IMG/VR virus record: IMGVR_UViG_2695420728_000017
From: a virus
Lineage: Duplodnaviria; Heunggongvirae; Uroviricota; Caudoviricetes
Strand: one strand, 5' to 3'
DNA: 21,441 nucleotides
This document shows, piece by piece, positions 3,574-16,155 of the stretch. Numbering within the stretch: the first letter of the stretch is position 1; the number at the start of each line of letters is the position of its first letter. A model generated the notes under the pieces. It saw nothing but the letters and a program-made list of their open reading frames with translations. It made no database searches and was not told the origin of the DNA. The position numbers were made by a program, and so were the translations under genes.

Positions 3574-3756
3574 TATTCCTCCCGGCCGGGATAGTGTATT
3601 AAATCAGATATGGAGTGGGCTGTAGTCCGGAAGCCTGAATGACACACGGGGACTACAGCCCAAGAAATGAAAAAAGGCCACGCAGTTGCGCAGCCTGATA
3701 AACCCTGGTTAAAATCCACACGATAACAACACAACAATATCAGTATCTCATGCTAT

Positions 3757-3782
3757 TGCCCGAACCCATTCGGGCATTTTTT
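3757..3782 (+). terminator. intrinsic terminator, plus strand only
   Basis: Perfect 8-bp stem TGCCCGAA/TTCGGGCA with CCCA loop followed by TTTTTT. The minus-strand version has no U-tract. Confidence 0.5.
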
Positions 3783-3787
3783 ACCCA

Positions 3788-3815
3788 TAAAAAATGCCCC
3801 TCCGGAGAGGGGCAT
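3788..3815 (-). terminator. intrinsic terminator, minus strand (between TerB operon and nanS-p)
   Basis: 9-bp stem ATGCCCCTC/GAGGGGCAT with 4-nt loop; on the minus strand it is followed by TTTTTTAT. Plus-strand side has only GTTTG. Confidence 0.55.
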
Positions 3816-3980
3816 GTTTGCATGCACATTCTTTTTCTTGCATGGTGCCGGGTGCCTCCCGGTGAATTCAGTATCAGCACCTGAATCCGCGATTATCCCA
3901 TATACCTGGTTGCTGATCGCCCCTCCGCACAGGGGGATTCACCATGCAGAAGTGTTTTTAATAAACAGCAAACAAAAAAA

Positions 3981-4745: not shown

Positions 4746-4822
4746 TGGCGCGTTGTAGTGGAGTCTAACCACTGACCGATTGCTTAGAAGGCAATTGCTC
4801 TGTCCGACTGAGCTAACAACGC
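4746..4822 (-). tRNA. argO: tRNA-Arg (anticodon TCT, decodes AGA/AGG); atypical T-loop
   Basis: 77-nt cloverleaf by hand: acceptor GCGTTGT/ACAACGC, D-arm GCTC/GAGC, anticodon stem ATTGC/GCAAT with loop CT-TCT-AA, T-stem AGTGG/CCACT, encoded CCA. T-loop is TTAGACT (A at position 56 instead of C). Third position in an Ile-Arg-Arg trio as in Stx-phage ileZ-argN-argO. Confidence 0.6.
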
Positions 4823-4835
4823 ATGATGCTGATAA

Positions 4836-4912
4836 TGGACCGCCATCGGGGACTTGAACCCCGCGCAGCCAGCTTCGAAGGCTGGCGCTCTGTCCCGATG
4901 AGCTAATAGCGG
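4836..4912 (-). tRNA. argN: tRNA-Arg (anticodon TCG, decodes CGA/CGG)
   Basis: 77-nt cloverleaf: acceptor CCGCTAT/ATGGCGG (one G-U), D-arm GCTC/GAGC, anticodon stem CCAGC/GCTGG with loop CT-TCG-AA, T-arm CGGGG-TTCAAGT-CCCCG, encoded CCA. Confidence 0.75.
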
Positions 4913-4921
4913 TATGTAATA

Positions 4922-4997
4922 TGGTGGCCCTTGCTGGATTTGAACCAGCGACCTGGCGATTATGAGTCGCTCGCTCTCACCACTGAGCTAAAGGGCC
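4922..4997 (-). tRNA. ileZ: tRNA-Ile2-like (anticodon CAT, lysidine type; close to ileX/ileY)
   Basis: 76-nt cloverleaf: acceptor GGCCCTT/AAGGGCC, D-arm GCTC-AGTGGTGA-GAGC, anticodon loop CT-CAT-AA, T-arm GCTGG-TTCAAAT-CCAGC, discriminator A, CCA. Near-identical in layout to E. coli ileX as I recall it. A CAT anticodon alone cannot exclude tRNA-Met. Confidence 0.8.
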
Positions 4998-11211: not shown

Positions 11212-11432
11212 GCTGCACCTCCGAGATGCTTCATGTTTTTTCCGGAGCGAAAGGCTATAAGCGGCATACTGACGCGGTAATTACGGCCAAGCGGTTCACA
11301 AATCACCTTCTGACATTCACGGTCAACCAGGCTAACACGTAGAACATGCCCTGCAGGTGTGGTGTACCACTGACCCGGACGAGGACAACGGAAAGTCTGA
11401 TTGGTAAACCGTTTGAAAATATTCCGGATCAT
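11208..11432 (-). CDS. hypothetical protein (74 aa)
   Basis: Its ATG overlaps the Rha stop (ATGA at 11429-11432) and its stop overlaps the O-like ATG (ATGA at 11208-11211). No family recognised. Confidence 0.4.
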   Translation of the reverse strand: MIRNIFKRFTNQTFRCPRPGQWYTTPAGHVLRVSLVDRECQKVICEPLGRNYRVSMPLIAFRSGKNMKHLGGAA

Positions 11433-11986
11433 TTGCGCCCCCTTACCTCTGAAGGGTTCAGCGACAAATTTATGAGGCAGGCCAGCGCCGAAGCATCATT
11501 AATATAATCATATAAGCTAACAGCCAGCGGAGATTCAGCTTTTGCCAACATAGGATAAAGCTGCTGCAGCCAGACCTTGTGGATTACCGACAGGTGGGAG
11601 TAAAGCACGCTGGCGTTATCTGCGGCATCGCTCAGCGTGGATGGCTTTGAAAGCAGTTTTTCCATCTGGTTAAAGGCATTGATGTATGCCTCTTTGAACC
11701 GGGCAGCACGTTTACCCGTGAAACCCATAGCAAGAAACGCAAAACCGTCTCGTGTGATTTGATAGCAAGGGAGCTTGCGTGTACCACCGTTCGGTTGATT
11801 TACCGAAATCGATGTCTCCGCAAAATTGCGGGCACAAAACTCAGGGGAACAATCCAGAGTGCGGATCTTTTTCAGCACATCGTCGTGACGCTTGGAGAAG
11901 AAGTTGGCAACAGCCAAAGAAGTGGTAACGGCCTGGCCGTTGTCAATGGTGATTTCAGGTTGAGTGAGGGCTTGGATCGTAGCCAT
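11429..11986 (-). CDS. phage regulatory protein Rha
   Basis: ATG at 11984-11986 with GGAGG 8 nt upstream; MATIQALTQPEITIDNGQAVTTSLAVANFFSKRHDDVLKKI…KLPCYQITRDGFAFLAMGFTGKRAARFKEAYINAFNQME is a canonical Rha N-terminal domain (185 aa). Confidence 0.7.
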   Translation of the reverse strand: MATIQALTQPEITIDNGQAVTTSLAVANFFSKRHDDVLKKIRTLDCSPEFCARNFAETSISVNQPNGGTRKLPCYQITRDGFAFLAMGFTGKRAARFKEAYINAFNQMEKLLSKPSTLSDAADNASVLYSHLSVIHKVWLQQLYPMLAKAESPLAVSLYDYINDASALACLINLSLNPSEVRGRK

Positions 11987-12589
11987 GATGGCAGCCTCCG
12001 TTGACAGTGAAAAACTTCCACCACCGGAAACGCCAATTTCACTGGTGGTGAACTGGACGGGGTTGGCGTAACCGGCGTCAACGGAGACCGGCGCACCTTT
12101 CGGTGCCCCCGCCCAGCCCACCATAATCTGGATGTGAGCAAATGCGGACGATAAAAAAGACGCTGGCGCGTCATACATCGCCGTTGACAATTTCAGGACG
12201 CCAATCCCGGCACCCGCTTTATAAGGTGCCTGAACAGTGTAACGTCCCGGAATTGCAGAGTCAATATGCTGGTGGTCCTTCACACTCAACAAAATCACGC
12301 CTGAATTTCCACAAAGGACTAAAGCACTCATGCGGGTAGTCTTTGCGAAGATAGATAACGCGCTGTGTTTCTGGCTCCCAACGAATAACATGAACATAAA
12401 GTCCTCTTCCGTCACGAAACCAGCGGTTAAGTTCCTGCACAACTCGCCCCCCACAGTCAGGTAAAGTTCTCTGTGGTTACTTACAGCCAGGTGATTTGGT
12501 AATCTGCATTCATGCCGTAACAACAGGTGTGCAGCGACACTGACCACCAGCTGTTGCGACAAACGGTTATTTGCCGTTAAACTGTTCAT
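11987..12589 (-). CDS. unassigned 201-codon open frame, in frame with and directly upstream of Rha (possible separate gene or N-terminal extension)
   Basis: ATG at 12587-12589 overlaps the stop of the upstream YdaT-like gene (ATGA) and has GGAGA about 10 nt upstream. The frame stays open for 201 codons into the Rha ATG while the other two minus frames are full of stops (hand translation). No family recognised; composition is unusual. Confidence 0.3.
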
Positions 12590-13137
12590 GCGTTAGTTTC
12601 TCCACAGACACAAAACGCCACGACGCCCGGAGCTGCACACTCGCGGGCGTTACTCTTTTCTGGAGCGCAGAAGATTTTGTAGACCAGTGCTGCATGCTCC
12701 TGGAGCTTCGAAATTGACAGATACAACTCATCATTAATTGCTGTCTGCTCGTGTGGCTCCACTACCCCATCTTCGATTGCCGAACGAATCTGCTTTGAGT
12801 AACTCCCGATCTGTTCGATGACTTCCAGCAGGCGCTGGTTTATATCGGCGTTCTCTACTTCCTCAATTTCTGGAAGTGATACAAACACCCCACCAGCAGA
12901 CTGTGCGACAGCATCCGCAATGTGGTGAGTACCAGCCGCACGCTGTAAAACCATTGCCCATCCCAACGGAAAAAACTGATCGCCATCGGCACGAAGGCGG
13001 TTGAATAAAGCGTTCTCTGTTACATCCAGCCACTCAGCAGCTTCAGCGTAACCCCCCGGCAACGCCGCGATAGTTTTTCTGACAGCTTTCACGTACCACT
13101 CAGGCTGTTTTTCCACTTTCCAGTGATGCTTACCCAC
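12586..13137 (-). CDS. YdaT-like / phage CII-type regulatory protein
   Basis: 183-aa ORF (GTG start) immediately after the Cro-like gene, the position and size class of ydaT in Rac-type immunity regions. Family call is from memory only. Confidence 0.4.
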   Translation of the reverse strand: MGKHHWKVEKQPEWYVKAVRKTIAALPGGYAEAAEWLDVTENALFNRLRADGDQFFPLGWAMVLQRAAGTHHIADAVAQSAGGVFVSLPEIEEVENADINQRLLEVIEQIGSYSKQIRSAIEDGVVEPHEQTAINDELYLSISKLQEHAALVYKIFCAPEKSNARECAAPGVVAFCVCGETNA

Positions 13138-13404: not shown

Positions 13405-13467
13405 TTGCGTGATGAGCATATTATTTCACGCAAATATTTTGCGCAAGTTGATTTGCTTAACGCGCAA
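13405..13467. promoter_or_regulatory. OR-type operator cluster between cro-like and cI-like genes
   Basis: Three dyad sites sharing TTGC…GCAA half-sites: TTGCGTGA-N13-TCACGCAA (13405-13433), TTGCGCAA (13439-13446), TTGCTTAACGCGCAA (13453-13467). Confidence 0.5.
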
Positions 13468-13487: not shown

Positions 13488-14180
13488 ATGAACATAGGAA
13501 ATCGAGTCAGACAACTTCGCCAGGCGAAGAACATGAAAATCGCCGATCTCGCTGAAGCAATAGGAGTGGATGCGGCGAATATCTCGCGCCTCGAAACAGG
13601 TAAGCAGAAACAATTCACTGAACAAGCCCTGAGTAATATTGCCAGGAGCTTAGGTGTTGATATTGCTGATCTCTTTACCTCAGACTTCAAAAGTAATACT
13701 GTATGTAAAAACAGTATTAGTGAGGATATTGCGCAGGTGAAGGATGTATTCCGTATTGAAATGCTGGATATCAGTGCCAGTGCGGGAAATGGCCTTATCC
13801 AGGGCGGAGATGTCATTGATGTGATTCATGCCATTGAATACAGAACTGATAATGCTGTATCGATGTTTGGCGGACGGCCAGCAAATCACATTAAAGTTAT
13901 CAACGTTCGTGGGGACAGTATGTGTCCAACCATTGAGCCAGGAGATCTCATCTTCGTTGATGTCAGTATCAATCAGTTTGATGGAGATGGTATCTATGTA
14001 TTTGGTTTTGATGATAAAATTTATGTCAAACGACTGCAAATGATACCTGACAAACTACTGGTGATTTCTGATAACCAGATTTATCGTGAATGGGGAATTA
14101 CCAGCGAAAATGAACACCGGTTTATGGTCTTTGGAAAGGTCTTAATCAGCCAGTCACAAACCCTTAAGCGACACAATTAA
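13488..14180 (+). CDS. CI-like prophage repressor (N-terminal HTH plus C-terminal S24/LexA-type autopeptidase)
   Basis: 230 aa; HTH KIADLAEAIGVDAANISRLETGK; peptidase block GDSMCPTIEPGDLIFVD with downstream Lys (KIYVKRL), i.e. the Ser-Lys dyad of RecA-stimulated self-cleaving repressors. Confidence 0.85.
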   Translation: MNIGNRVRQLRQAKNMKIADLAEAIGVDAANISRLETGKQKQFTEQALSNIARSLGVDIADLFTSDFKSNTVCKNSISEDIAQVKDVFRIEMLDISASAGNGLIQGGDVIDVIHAIEYRTDNAVSMFGGRPANHIKVINVRGDSMCPTIEPGDLIFVDVSINQFDGDGIYVFGFDDKIYVKRLQMIPDKLLVISDNQIYREWGITSENEHRFMVFGKVLISQSQTLKRHN

Positions 14181-14200
14181 CCCTTACCTCCTCATCAATT

Positions 14201-14226
14201 AGCCACCCGAAGGTGGCTTTTCATTA
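14201..14226 (+). terminator. intrinsic terminator after the repressor gene
   Basis: Stem AGCCACC/GGTGGCT with CGAA loop followed by TTTTCATT, 20 nt after the cI stop. Confidence 0.5.
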
Positions 14227-14235
14227 CCCATCAAA

Positions 14236-14288
14236 TTGCATATCTCGCAACAAAAATACTTGCATAATACGCAACTTCATTTTATCTT
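14236..14288 (+). promoter_or_regulatory. OL-type operators overlapping a candidate pL promoter
   Basis: Two 15-bp sites matching the OR motif: TTGCATATCTCGCAA (14236-14250) and TTGCATAATACGCAA (14260-14274). Candidate -35 TTGCAT (14260-14265), 17-nt spacer, -10 TATCTT (14283-14288). Confidence 0.35.
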
Positions 14289-14719
14289 TCTTTCCAGACC
14301 AACAAACAAGGTACTAACAAAATTTGGTTGTAACACGGCGTATGGCACATGCGTCGTTAGCGGTCTGGGGACGTTAAAGGGGACAATCCACTCCTTGCTC
14401 GGGCAAACAAACCAGGTAGCCGGAATGTGCAAGTCAATGATGATGCTGATAAGACGCCTAACCAGCGTGGCGATTCGGTTTGACGCCTGGGAAGAGACCA
14501 GGGTGCAACTATGAGGGCATTTATGGAACCGCGACAAAGTGTGGTGCCGTAACTGGCTAAGTGCTCTCAGCGTTGTGGTGAATGCGCAGGCTGATGCGCG
14601 AAAGACATTGCAGCTATTGCGGAAAAGAGCTGTTCGGCGGGGCAATTAAATGCCCGTGAGAGTCTGAAATAACCGCAAGCCGGAGATCATCACCGATCAC
14701 CACAACAGCCACTGCTTTG

Positions 14720-14766
14720 GCGGTACCAGTTTGTACACTTGCTTCCGGCTGGTACCGCTCTTTTTA
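14720..14766 (+). terminator. intrinsic terminator in the early-left leader (tL-like); 3' side resembles boxA
   Basis: Perfect 10-bp stem GCGGTACCAG/CTGGTACCGC with 19-nt loop, followed by TCTTTTT. The 3' arm plus U-tract reads CGCTCTTTTTA, like the nut boxA consensus CGCTCTT(T)A. Confidence 0.5.
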
Positions 14767-14902
14767 CAAAACAGAGAAGAGCATCACCGGACGACGGGCT
14801 CATAACCCAATCCATCCGGGCGGCTGCCACCGCAGGTGTTCTTCTCTGTTTTGTGGAGAAACCAACCGACCTTGCAGGGTCGATATGATGAGGAGCAGCA
14901 AA

Positions 14903-15265
14903 ATGGCTAGCGAACGCAGTACTGATGTGCAGGCATTTATCGGGGAGCTGGACGGCGGCGTATTTGAAACCAAAATCGGCGCAGTTCTCAGTGAAGTCGC
15001 TTCCGGTGTGATGAACACGAAAACCAAAGGTAAGGTCTCACTCAACCTGGAAATCGAACCATTTGATGAGAACCGTGTGAAAATCAAACACAAACTCTCA
15101 TATGTTCGCCCGACTAACCGCGGGAAAATTTCCGAAGAAGACACCACCGAAACGCCGATGTATGTCAATCGCGGTGGTCGCCTGACTATTCTGCAGGAAG
15201 ACCAGGGACAATTACTGACTCTTGCCGGTGAACCTGACGGAAAACTACGCGCAGCAGGTCATTAA
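14903..15265 (+). CDS. YfdP-like hypothetical protein (120 aa)
   Basis: ATG at 14903 with AGGAG 8 nt upstream (MASERSTDVQAF…); the 120-aa size and the following 274/178/120-aa genes match the K-12 CPS-53 yfdP-yfdQ-yfdR-yfdS series as I recall it. The ORF-track N-terminal extension runs through terminator hairpins. Confidence 0.5.
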   Translation: MASERSTDVQAFIGELDGGVFETKIGAVLSEVASGVMNTKTKGKVSLNLEIEPFDENRVKIKHKLSYVRPTNRGKISEEDTTETPMYVNRGGRLTILQEDQGQLLTLAGEPDGKLRAAGH

Positions 15266-15330: not shown

Positions 15331-16155
15331 ATGTCTCAGAACTTAGACGCAACCGCAATTAATCAAATCCATGCCCTTATTTCTGCTCAGGGTGTTAATG
15401 AAATTATCAGTAAGATTGGTGCCGATGCTGTGGCATTGCCTGAGAATTTCCGCATTCATGATCTGGAAAAATTTAATTTAAATCGCTTCCGTTTCCGTGG
15501 TGCGCTTTCCACTGCCAGCATCGATGACTTTACCCGTTATTCTAAAGATCTTGCAGATGAAGGCACCCGCTGCTTTATCGATGCCGATAATATGCGTGCC
15601 GTCAGTGTGCTTAACCTGGGTACTATTGATGAACCAGGTCACGCAGATAACACTGCCACTCTCAAACTGAAAAAGACAGCACCGTTCTCTGCTCTGTTGT
15701 CTGTTAATGGCGAGCGTAACTCCCAGAAGTCACTGGCAGAATGGATCGAAGACTGGGCCGACTACCTTGTAGGCTTTGATGCTAATGGTGACACCATTCA
15801 GGCAACAAAAGCGGCTGCGGCAGTCCGTAAAATCACGATTGAAGCAAACCAGACCGCTGATTTTGAAGATAATGACTTCAGCGGCAAACGCTCCCTGATG
15901 GAGTCTGTCGAAGCGAAGACCAAAGACATTATGCCAGTGGCATTTGAATTTAAATGCGTTCCGTTTGAAGGCCTGAAAGAACGTCCGTTTAAATTACGCC
16001 TCAGCATTATCACTGGCGATCGTCCTGTACTGGTTCTGCGCATTATTCAGCTGGAAGCAGTCCAGGAAGAAATGGCTAACGAATTTCGTGATCTGCTTGT
16101 TGAGAAATTCAAGGACAGCAAAGTAGAAACCTTTATTGGTACTTTCACCGCCTGA
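15331..16155 (+). CDS. YfdQ-like protein (DUF2303-type, 274 aa)
   Basis: ATG at 15331 with GAGGA RBS; length and position match yfdQ. Function unknown. Confidence 0.55.

Follow-up and report, generated by a model that had tools for sequence, protein, structure and literature searches.

The question addressed here is what is encoded between the cI-like repressor gene and yfdP, the first gene of the early-left operon, in a 21,441-nt stretch of viral DNA (IMG/VR record IMGVR_UViG_2695420728_000017; hereafter, the window), which represents a lambdoid prophage of the mEp460/SfV/e14 type. A preliminary description, made from the sequence alone, had recorded about 600 nt without a convincing open reading frame (ORF) downstream of candidate operator and promoter sequences (OL/pL), ending in a terminator and a 15-bp stem, and had proposed that this region might represent a nut-like site, a processive-antitermination RNA element, or a small RNA (sRNA) or that it might hide a short peptide. 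The interval 14181 to 14902 is the leader RNA of the early-left operon in an mEp460/SfV-type prophage; it is modular and does not code for protein, and its gene-free stretch is a stack of folded RNA modules, namely, module B, element C, an intrinsic terminator (tL), and a long hairpin. The main feature, the structured RNA at positions 14572 to 14706 (element C), was missed in the preliminary description, as was module B upstream of it, and element C together with the terminator is the published small RNA sRNA-17.

The latter identification emerged from a literature search on yfdP, which led to the study of Sun et al. (2020; PMC7719688), in which a 193-nt sRNA-17 is reported to have been mapped by 5′ and 3′ rapid amplification of cDNA ends (RACE) and Northern blotting in an mEp460-like prophage of Escherichia coli K1 strain RS218. 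The primers given there for full-length sRNA-17 match positions 14572 to 14604 and the reverse complement of 14733 to 14764, and the 50-nt Northern probe is the reverse complement of 14634 to 14683 with one mismatch (PMC7719688). The 3′ RACE primers have the sense of the + strand, and those for 5′ RACE, like the Northern probe, are antisense to it, orientations which place sRNA-17 on the + strand and its 3′ end in the U-tract of tL. The window equivalent of sRNA-17, identified through the full-length, RACE, and Northern primers of that study and agreeing with it in sequence, strand, and locus, therefore occupies positions 14571 to 14764 (+ strand). The sRNA option of the preliminary description is thereby supported, both by this RACE- and Northern-mapped transcript and by the covarying structure of its core (see below). 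The RACE-determined 5′ end lies at the base of the closing helix of element C (14571), where no sigma-70 consensus promoter was found by scanning, and the published quantitative reverse transcription-PCR amplicon spans positions 14322 to 14718, covering what the authors call the promoter (PMC7719688). Taken together, these two observations make a longer precursor likely, and it is proposed that the sRNA's 5′ end would be generated by processing of a longer, pL-derived transcript. In the available text of PMC7719688, sRNA-17 is viewed as an ArcA-controlled, trans-acting RNA restricted to Escherichia and Salmonella, and the fold, the wide phage distribution, and the pL-leader context detailed below are not described there.

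Element C was delineated on the + strand by an exact 19-nt core, an H2 hairpin with three mismatches to the consensus, and covariation across the family. It comprises a closing helix, P1 (14572 to 14580 paired with 14698 to 14706, with arms that are 100% complementary), an AAU linker (14581 to 14583), a hairpin, H1, with the loop GGCUGA (14584 to 14599), a hypervariable insert (14600 to 14678), and a second hairpin, H2, with the loop AGAUCAUCA (14679 to 14697). Over its first 40 nt, sRNA-17 proved by BLAST to share more than 90% identity with very different phages, including HK620 (in the late leader between qut and tQ), the P1-like RCS47 (following tRNA-Asn and tRNA-Thr), and phages of Klebsiella, Enterobacter, Erwinia, and Edwardsiella, and alignment of these sequences displayed conserved 5′ and 3′ blocks flanking a variable middle. 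The plan of the class consists of a variable P1 5′ strand, AAU, H1 (GCGCA-GGCUGA-UGCGC), an insert of 26 to 351 nt, and H2 (GCCGG-AGAUCAGCA-CCGGC), which is followed in every good instance by the P1 3′ strand without a spacer. With 19 of 19 core positions, a perfect P1 of 10 nt, and 17 of 20 H2 positions, the window carries a genuine, if deviant, copy. Across copies, P1 is often 15 to 25 bp long (7 bp in its minimal form) and stacks directly on the 5-bp H2.

This fold is supported by covariation among 116 distinct cores. Six P1 pairs (alignment columns 4 to 9) each occur as at least four standard pair types, with 20 to 62 double changes, and double changes are apparent at all five pairs of H1 and all five pairs of H2. 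The resulting covariation score, 0.340, compares with 0.099 for shuffled alignments (none of 500 reached the observed value) and with at most 0.13 for slid controls. Furthermore, GCUGA of the H1 loop is complementary to UCAGC of the H2 loop, and this complementarity is kept in three sequence classes (GCUGA:UCAGC, GCGA:UCGC, and UGC:GCA). The second of these is exemplified by the upstream copy of a tandem pair (locus L201), in which GGCGA pairs with UUCGCAA, while in STnc100-type copies (G/A)UGCGG pairs with AGGCA. That the complementarity persists across classes while the sequence changes supports a loop-loop interaction.

The copy of H2 in the window reads GCCGGAGAUCAUCACCGAUC. Its G-to-U change in the loop abolishes a pair that 116 of 116 cores keep unchanged, and a G-to-A change in the stem creates a C-A mismatch, so that the window differs from published sRNA-17 at two near-invariant positions of H2. 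The H2 region of the window is matched at 99% or above by only 8 of 851 E. coli records, and both mEp460 and UTI89 possess the consensus H2. RS218 itself appears to carry an intact copy, judging from the row of the closely related UTI89 in the supplement of PMC7719688. On the basis of these two substitutions, the window copy may be impaired.

A hidden small protein would be an alternative to a non-coding reading of this interval. In an E. coli chromosome with 100% identity to positions 14181 to 14903, RefSeq/PGAP places no gene between the cI-like repressor and yfdP, and no ORF within the interval matches Pfam. Stop-free stretches switch strand and frame among homologues, no frame is kept in the homologues of module B, and a conserved reading frame with a ribosome-binding site was not found anywhere in the interval. 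The earlier statement that the interval lacks a convincing ORF is upheld by these results, and the coding potential by homology that would have contradicted it was not found by Pfam, PGAP, or frame conservation. The preliminary description had nevertheless raised the possibility of a 25-codon peptide, MRRLMRERHCSYCGKELFGGAIKCP, starting at about 14580. An ATG-initiated ORF is indeed present, at 14582 to 14659 (the start codon being at 14582), gp36 and gp37 are annotated in this region of mEp460, where the annotated minus-strand ORFs are further candidates, and PHROG families exist for short ORFs of the hairpin. However, the 25-codon ORF is a conserved hairpin read as codons, its AUG lying inside the invariant AAUGCGC of H1, and its third Cys codon is replaced by Arg in mEp460. 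Across the family, the frame opened by AAUGCGC ranges from 6 to 216 codons (median, 19), the sequence beyond MRRLMR is not conserved at all (139 copies continue in 109 different ways), the ATG is missing in 14 of 153 copies, and a Shine-Dalgarno-like sequence precedes the frame in only 20 of 170. The PHROG matches, moreover, come from both strands of a single hairpin, a sign of over-called ORFs. The short-peptide reading is consequently rejected, and any small protein here is considered extremely improbable.

Downstream of element C lies tL (14720 to 14766, + strand), which provides both the 3′ end of sRNA-17 and a barrier ahead of yfdP. Its arms (14720 to 14729 and 14749 to 14758) are 100% complementary, RNAfold gives a longer stem, of 13 bp, with UCUUUUUA after it, and the 3′ arm and U-tract read CGCTCTTTTTA, just as had been recorded in the preliminary description. 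A simple terminator scan missed this structure because its loop measures 19 nt. The 3′ end anticipated there at about 14765 corresponds to the 3′ RACE end within the U-tract of the near-identical RS218 prophage (PMC7719688), and the terminator is real. In ST64B, F1055, LLS, and SfV a different terminator stem occupies the same place and the string CGCTCTT is not kept, indicating that the boxA-like tail previously attributed to the terminator is not a conserved feature. As a separate observation, an 11-nt stretch of the insert (14623 to 14633; AAAAGAGCUGU) is 91% complementary to positions 14754 to 14764, i.e., to the 3′ arm and U-tract of tL.

The terminator is followed immediately by the long hairpin (+ strand), in which 14761 to 14785 pair with 14835 to 14859 to form a 25-bp stem that includes G-U pairs. 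The perfect 15-bp stem reported earlier (14766 to 14780 with 14840 to 14854) proved to be the core of this larger hairpin, whose folding energy of -61.5 kcal/mol (z = -5.5) was equaled by none of 200 shuffled sequences and whose 5′ arm contains the U-tract of tL. The hairpin is conserved in ST64B, F1055, LLS, and SfV, in all of which a terminator lies directly upstream, with a few compensatory changes (ST64B and LLS). Transcripts that read through tL would fold this 25-bp hairpin, a likely RNase III target, just ahead of the yfdP ribosome-binding site. In the lambda N leader, similarly, the RNase III site is a long hairpin just before the ribosome-binding site of the first gene.

The expression of yfdP bears on the roles of both tL and element C. 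In PMC7719688, RNA sequencing of the wild-type lysogen gives 0.49 reads for yfdP, as opposed to 47 reads after a cat cassette had replaced positions 14597 to 14716, reported as a 95-fold rise. It is proposed that tL doubles as a barrier which would keep yfdP-yfdR silent in lysogens. The cat gene of pKD3 is presumed to read from priming site 2 to priming site 1 and, therefore, towards yfdP in this construct. With the cassette oriented in this manner, the rise in yfdP is read as cassette read-through rather than as loss of a trans-acting regulator, and the up-regulation reported for the deletion mutant may have been caused in cis by the cassette.

The position of element C ahead of a strong terminator raises the question of whether it, alone or in combination with module B, acts in cis as an antitermination or anti-Rho RNA, modifying RNA polymerase in the manner of the HK022 put element or an rrn leader and so allowing it to read through tL and through tRNA arrays, which are untranslated. 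Copies are located downstream of promoters and upstream of terminators (a terminator follows P1 within 12 nt in 16 copies and at 13 nt here), usually ahead of co-oriented tRNA arrays, and in both early-left and late (holin/spanin) leaders. Annotation shows no N-like antiterminator gene in spite of the strong terminator that blocks the operon, the core is near-invariant in phages of many hosts, as would be expected of a sequence binding a universal machine, and a boxA-like GCTCTT is present 11 to 12 nt upstream of P1 in an enterobacterial subfamily. The region also occupies the same position as the lambda nutL/N leader, between OL/pL and the first early-left gene. In contrast to lambda, however, no N gene is present: the absence of an N-like gene stated in the preliminary description holds in that none is annotated before yfdP, where the ORFs lack family support. 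Neither a conserved CGCTCTTA-like boxA nor a boxB with a 5-nt GNRA-like loop was found, the H1 loop being the 6-nt GGCUGA, and GTGCTCTCA upstream of P1 is subfamily-specific. The boxA candidate upstream of P1 was rejected, as it is confined to one subfamily (24 of 150 copies) and a reverse-complement control is equally frequent. The suggestion of a nut-like site is accordingly not supported, with a terminator string that is not conserved, an H1 without a boxB-type loop, and no annotated N-like gene.

The comparison with put is closer in that both are phage-encoded structured RNAs located past an early promoter and before terminators in phages lacking N. The architecture of put nevertheless differs, being an RNA of about 70 nt composed of two stem-loops in a V shape with a triplex and with neither a closing helix nor a variable insert (PMC9378689), and this description sets element C apart from it. 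In the RS218 lysogen, which bears only indirectly on factor-independent read-through in cis of the put type, sRNA-17 ends at the adjacent terminator and yfdP is near-silent (about 0.5 reads). Some copies, moreover, resemble free-standing genes, with promoter-like sequence at P1 and a terminator right after the element (locus L089). The processive-antitermination reading of the preliminary description is thus disfavored, and we consider a cis antitermination role to be improbable.

Element C is by no means confined to lambdoid leaders. It was present in at least 120 IMG/VR viral contigs in each of two exact-pattern scans, and its 19-nt core was present in at least 120 species genomes; among the 120 matches listed, 73 displayed the full fold and some were unrelated. 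The hosts among the matches listed are mostly Proteobacteria (Enterobacterales, Pseudomonas, Xanthomonadales, Burkholderiales, and alphaproteobacteria), with the addition of Desulfocarbo, a single Flavobacterium metagenome-assembled genome (MAG), and a single Coriobacteriia MAG. Positions 14640 to 14720, which run from the last part of the insert through H2 and the 3′ strand of P1, were detected on chromosomes and P1-size plasmids in 812 of 5,426 complete E. coli genomes. What lies downstream varies (yfdP, holins, spanins, RecT-like proteins, or small unknown ORFs 26 to 31 nt away), and no conserved downstream partner gene was found among the neighbors of element C copies. All 55 of the 55 tRNA genes within 600 nt lie on the same strand as element C, some of them 6 to 11 nt after P1, and the inserts sometimes hold a whole tRNA or a hammerhead-like sequence. 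Individual loci illustrate this arrangement: RCS47 (L005) carries tandem copies (approximately 1514 to 1645 and 1943 to 2041) with different inserts, after tRNA-Asn and tRNA-Thr, which partly overlap an annotated "plp" lipoprotein ORF on the opposite strand. L201 carries elements at approximately 398 to 500 and 524 to 742 with the loops GGCGA/UUCGCAA and GGCUGA/AGAUCAGCA, respectively, the second having tRNA-Pro inside its insert, and in locus L012 a hammerhead-like sequence (3701 to 3779; 28 bits with the HH9 model, short of its gathering score) occurs within the insert.

In a further alternative, element C is an RNA-processing module, either a tRNA-like or RNase-recognized punctuation mark or a new self-cleaving ribozyme, that cuts leader and tRNA transcripts and protects their ends. 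Such a role would accord with the RACE 5′ end at the base of P1, with the embedding of copies in same-strand tRNA arrays, sometimes 6 to 11 nt ahead of a tRNA, and with a P1 that stacks, at a minimal 7 bp, on the 5-bp H2 beneath loops that can pair as in a tRNA elbow. Near-invariant junction and loop nucleotides accompanied by variable peripheral domains are typical of ribozymes, and the hammerhead-like sequence in one insert and the whole tRNAs in others imply that the core tolerates splitting. Against this, ARAGORN called tRNAs only beside the element or inside its insert, never on the core, and no transfer-messenger RNA (tmRNA); Rfam yielded no tRNA or tmRNA match over the core (and a few low-scoring tmRNA matches elsewhere in the loci), and no known Rfam ribozyme family matches element C. 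P1 is, moreover, often 15 to 25 bp long, unlike an acceptor stem, and is followed by no conserved CCA, the region being merely C/A-rich. A processing module is therefore regarded as unlikely.

The same geometry invites comparison with ligand- or factor-sensing aptamers that control, in the manner of a riboswitch, the terminator or ribosome-binding site following P1. The junction, in which loop-loop pairs join two 5-bp hairpins lying in parallel and the nucleotides AAU and A-A/U are conserved, resembles the layout of the purine riboswitch, and a terminator or start codon often follows closely. Yet many copies have a very long and stable P1, the examples examined showed no alternative antiterminator pairing that overlaps P1, the downstream genes are mutually unrelated, and the element occurs inside tRNA arrays. 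The only long-range complement found, between the tail of module B (14515 to 14523) and the insert (14647 to 14655), lacks covariation in mEp460. A riboswitch-like function is thus regarded as very unlikely.

In its architecture, element C resembles the Hfq-associated prophage sRNAs STnc100 and PasD. A 2026 preprint describes STnc100 and PasD as structural homologues encoded near Q, esterase, and holin genes, PasD being an sRNA recovered from prophages of enteropathogenic E. coli by Hfq RIL-seq; Hfq association has been shown, and pairing targets reported, for PasD only. Comparison of consensus structures, together with a generic architecture scan, established that element C shares the STnc100/PasD secondary-structure architecture. 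In STnc100, as in element C, the closing helix ends in GGUG and leads through an AAU(C) linker into a 5-bp hairpin whose loop is 6 nt long. A variable middle (made up of hairpins in STnc100) separates this from a further hairpin, again of 5 bp, that abuts CACC..., and a terminator comes next. The two loops are complementary, and both STnc100/PasD and element C occur in leader regions of lambdoid prophages near tRNAs. The sequences nevertheless differ, in the hairpins as well as in the loops (GUGCGG and AGGCA in STnc100 versus GGCUGA and AGAUCAGCA in element C), as does the distribution, STnc100/PasD being gammaproteobacterial or limited to Escherichia/Shigella by their descriptions, whereas element C extends across the Proteobacteria and beyond. 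Rfam 15, applied at gathering and permissive thresholds to the window and 25 related loci, returned no family over element C, and the STnc100 model (RF02076) gave no match on 14100 to 15000 at E values up to 10, nor on a short-insert copy, so that element C does not reach the gathering threshold of STnc100/PasD. Element C/sRNA-17 is therefore filed as a new sequence class of the STnc100/PasD kind, by architecture and not by model score. A full-text search found no paper carrying the core sequences as strings, and a keyword search returned none relevant to such a phage motif.

The window also harbors a true STnc100 (3783 to 3976, - strand; 142.7 bits with Rfam), which adjoins AgvB (3721 to 3782, + strand). 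Three tRNA genes (4749 to 4997, - strand) lie upstream of it in the late leader. Two other candidates for a relationship were set aside: a weak isrJ match (26 bits; E = 0.005) over H2, the P1 3′ strand, and the terminator in locus L011 (4558 to 4629) was not reproduced in six loci, and the T4 species 1 and 2 RNAs, when read directly, lack the P1/H1/H2 architecture. Salmonella IsrJ might, as an aside, be a fragment of an RNA related to element C.

Considering the above, the reading that we favor, and hold to be somewhat more probable than its negation, is that of a modular leader in which element C is a stable, scaffolded small RNA acting in trans, as proposed for STnc100/PasD. Transcription of the + strand passes module B and then element C before stopping at the terminator 13 nt past the closing helix, and the product in a near-identical prophage is the stable 193-nt sRNA-17. 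The conserved core would confer stability, processing, or partner binding, while the variable insert would supply the specific activity. A number of observations weigh against this reading. Counted over non-redundant entries, the element precedes the tRNAs in about 19 locus types and follows them in about 5, a canonical terminator occurs within 150 nt in only 26 of 169 copies and within 12 nt in 16, and many copies are located 26 to 31 nt before a start codon or ahead of tRNA arrays, a placement no less compatible with a cis-acting or processing role than with one in trans. The kissing pairs never vary inside the main class (116 cores), and, since the core-only alignment was selected for pairing, the share of cells that pair is overstated (though not the diversity of pair types). 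The link to STnc100 rests on architecture and on the short shared strings GGUG-AAU and CACC. Furthermore, the 95-fold rise in yfdP possibly reflects read-through from cat, the function of sRNA-17 and its class is inferred, and a part for RNase III at the long hairpin is purely conjectural.

The second component of the leader, module B (approximately 14333 to 14522, + strand), was defined from its homologues and RNAalifold as a conserved structured RNA domain, although the evidence for it is thinner than that for element C. Homologues with 78 to 99% identity, mostly unannotated, are present in P1, P7, D6, epsilon15-like phages, and mEp390; that of P1 (71010 to 71194; L210, 1501 to 1685) starts 2 nt after tRNA-Ile, upstream of ban. 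RNAalifold analysis of seven module B sequences predicted 33 pairs, 11 of which show compensatory changes, including a long-range GCACAU/AUGUGC helix and a hairpin, CCUSG-GAAGAGA-CSAGG, which in the window (CCUGG-GAAGAGA-CCAGG) occupies positions 14486 to 14502. This recurrent hairpin motif was found in 28 of 153 unique element C copies, mostly upstream of the element and including non-enteric ones, and 12 of 29 motif matches lie 50 to 100 nt upstream of element C. No Rfam family was detected over module B.

On the opposite side of this leader, the cI-like repressor ORF (13488 to 14180, + strand; helix-turn-helix and S24 peptidase domains) is followed by an intrinsic terminator of the repressor transcript (14201 to 14218, + strand), at which the terminator scan detected a 7-bp stem and then TTTCATT and the equivalent of which is annotated as a terminator in SfII and SfV. 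The presumed pL region (OL; 14236 to 14275, + strand) contains two perfect 16-bp operator-like repeats, TTGCATANNNCGCAAC, at 14236 and 14260. The cro/cI intergenic region holds a related site, at 13453, and none of 100 shuffled sequences gave four matches. These repeats, which support the OL/pL region put forward in the preliminary description, mark the place where pL is expected; the scan found no sigma-70 consensus promoter in the pL/OL region. A small hairpin (14867 to 14882, + strand) lies upstream of the yfdP ribosome-binding site, GAGGAG (14890 to 14895). The yfdP-like gene is present as described earlier, with its start corrected to 14903 (14903 to 15265, + strand; annotated in an identical genome, with a match to phrog_204 at 1e-49), and is followed by the YfdQ (DUF2303) ORF (15331 to 16155, + strand), while a cII-like ORF is located at 12586 to 13137 (- strand).

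Elsewhere in the window, matches to C4 antisense RNA (12041 to 12128) and isrK (12153 to 12229) lie inside a 386-amino-acid Rha/Ash-family ORF (11429 to 12589); either the start of this ORF is over-called or RNA and coding sequence may overlap. A direct repeat (1 to 300 and 1846 to 2145; 99% identity at a spacing of 1,845 nt) falls in the region of a 616-amino-acid sialate-esterase-like ORF (SASA, DUF1737, and DUF6645), which suggests a tandemly duplicated esterase gene.

A broader proposal, which is advanced tentatively and is rather more doubtful than probable, is that element C, STnc100/PasD, and further variants form one large superfamily of phage modular RNA scaffolds with exchangeable cargo, which bind or are processed by a universal host component. 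Each member would consist of a closing helix and two kiss-locked hairpins, the cargo being a variable RNA segment, a whole tRNA, or a hammerhead, and module B would represent a frequently coupled second domain. The element C core of about 45 nt is near-invariant in phages of alpha-, beta-, and gammaproteobacteria and Desulfobacterota, which on this view would be because the universal host component binds or processes it. As STnc100 shares the architecture of element C, the window would then carry two members of the proposed superfamily.

A link to virulence in neonatal-meningitis E. coli has been published for sRNA-17, which PMC7719688 treats as a narrow, lineage-specific regulator. The present analysis places it in the leader of a prophage early-left operon, where it is ended by the first terminator of that operon, and identifies its core as among the more widespread and conserved phage RNA folds in the collections searched, with the architecture of STnc100/PasD even though no Rfam family scores element C. 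If the view of a scaffold with cargo is correct, many phage intergenic leaders would encode a common, exchangeable RNA platform.

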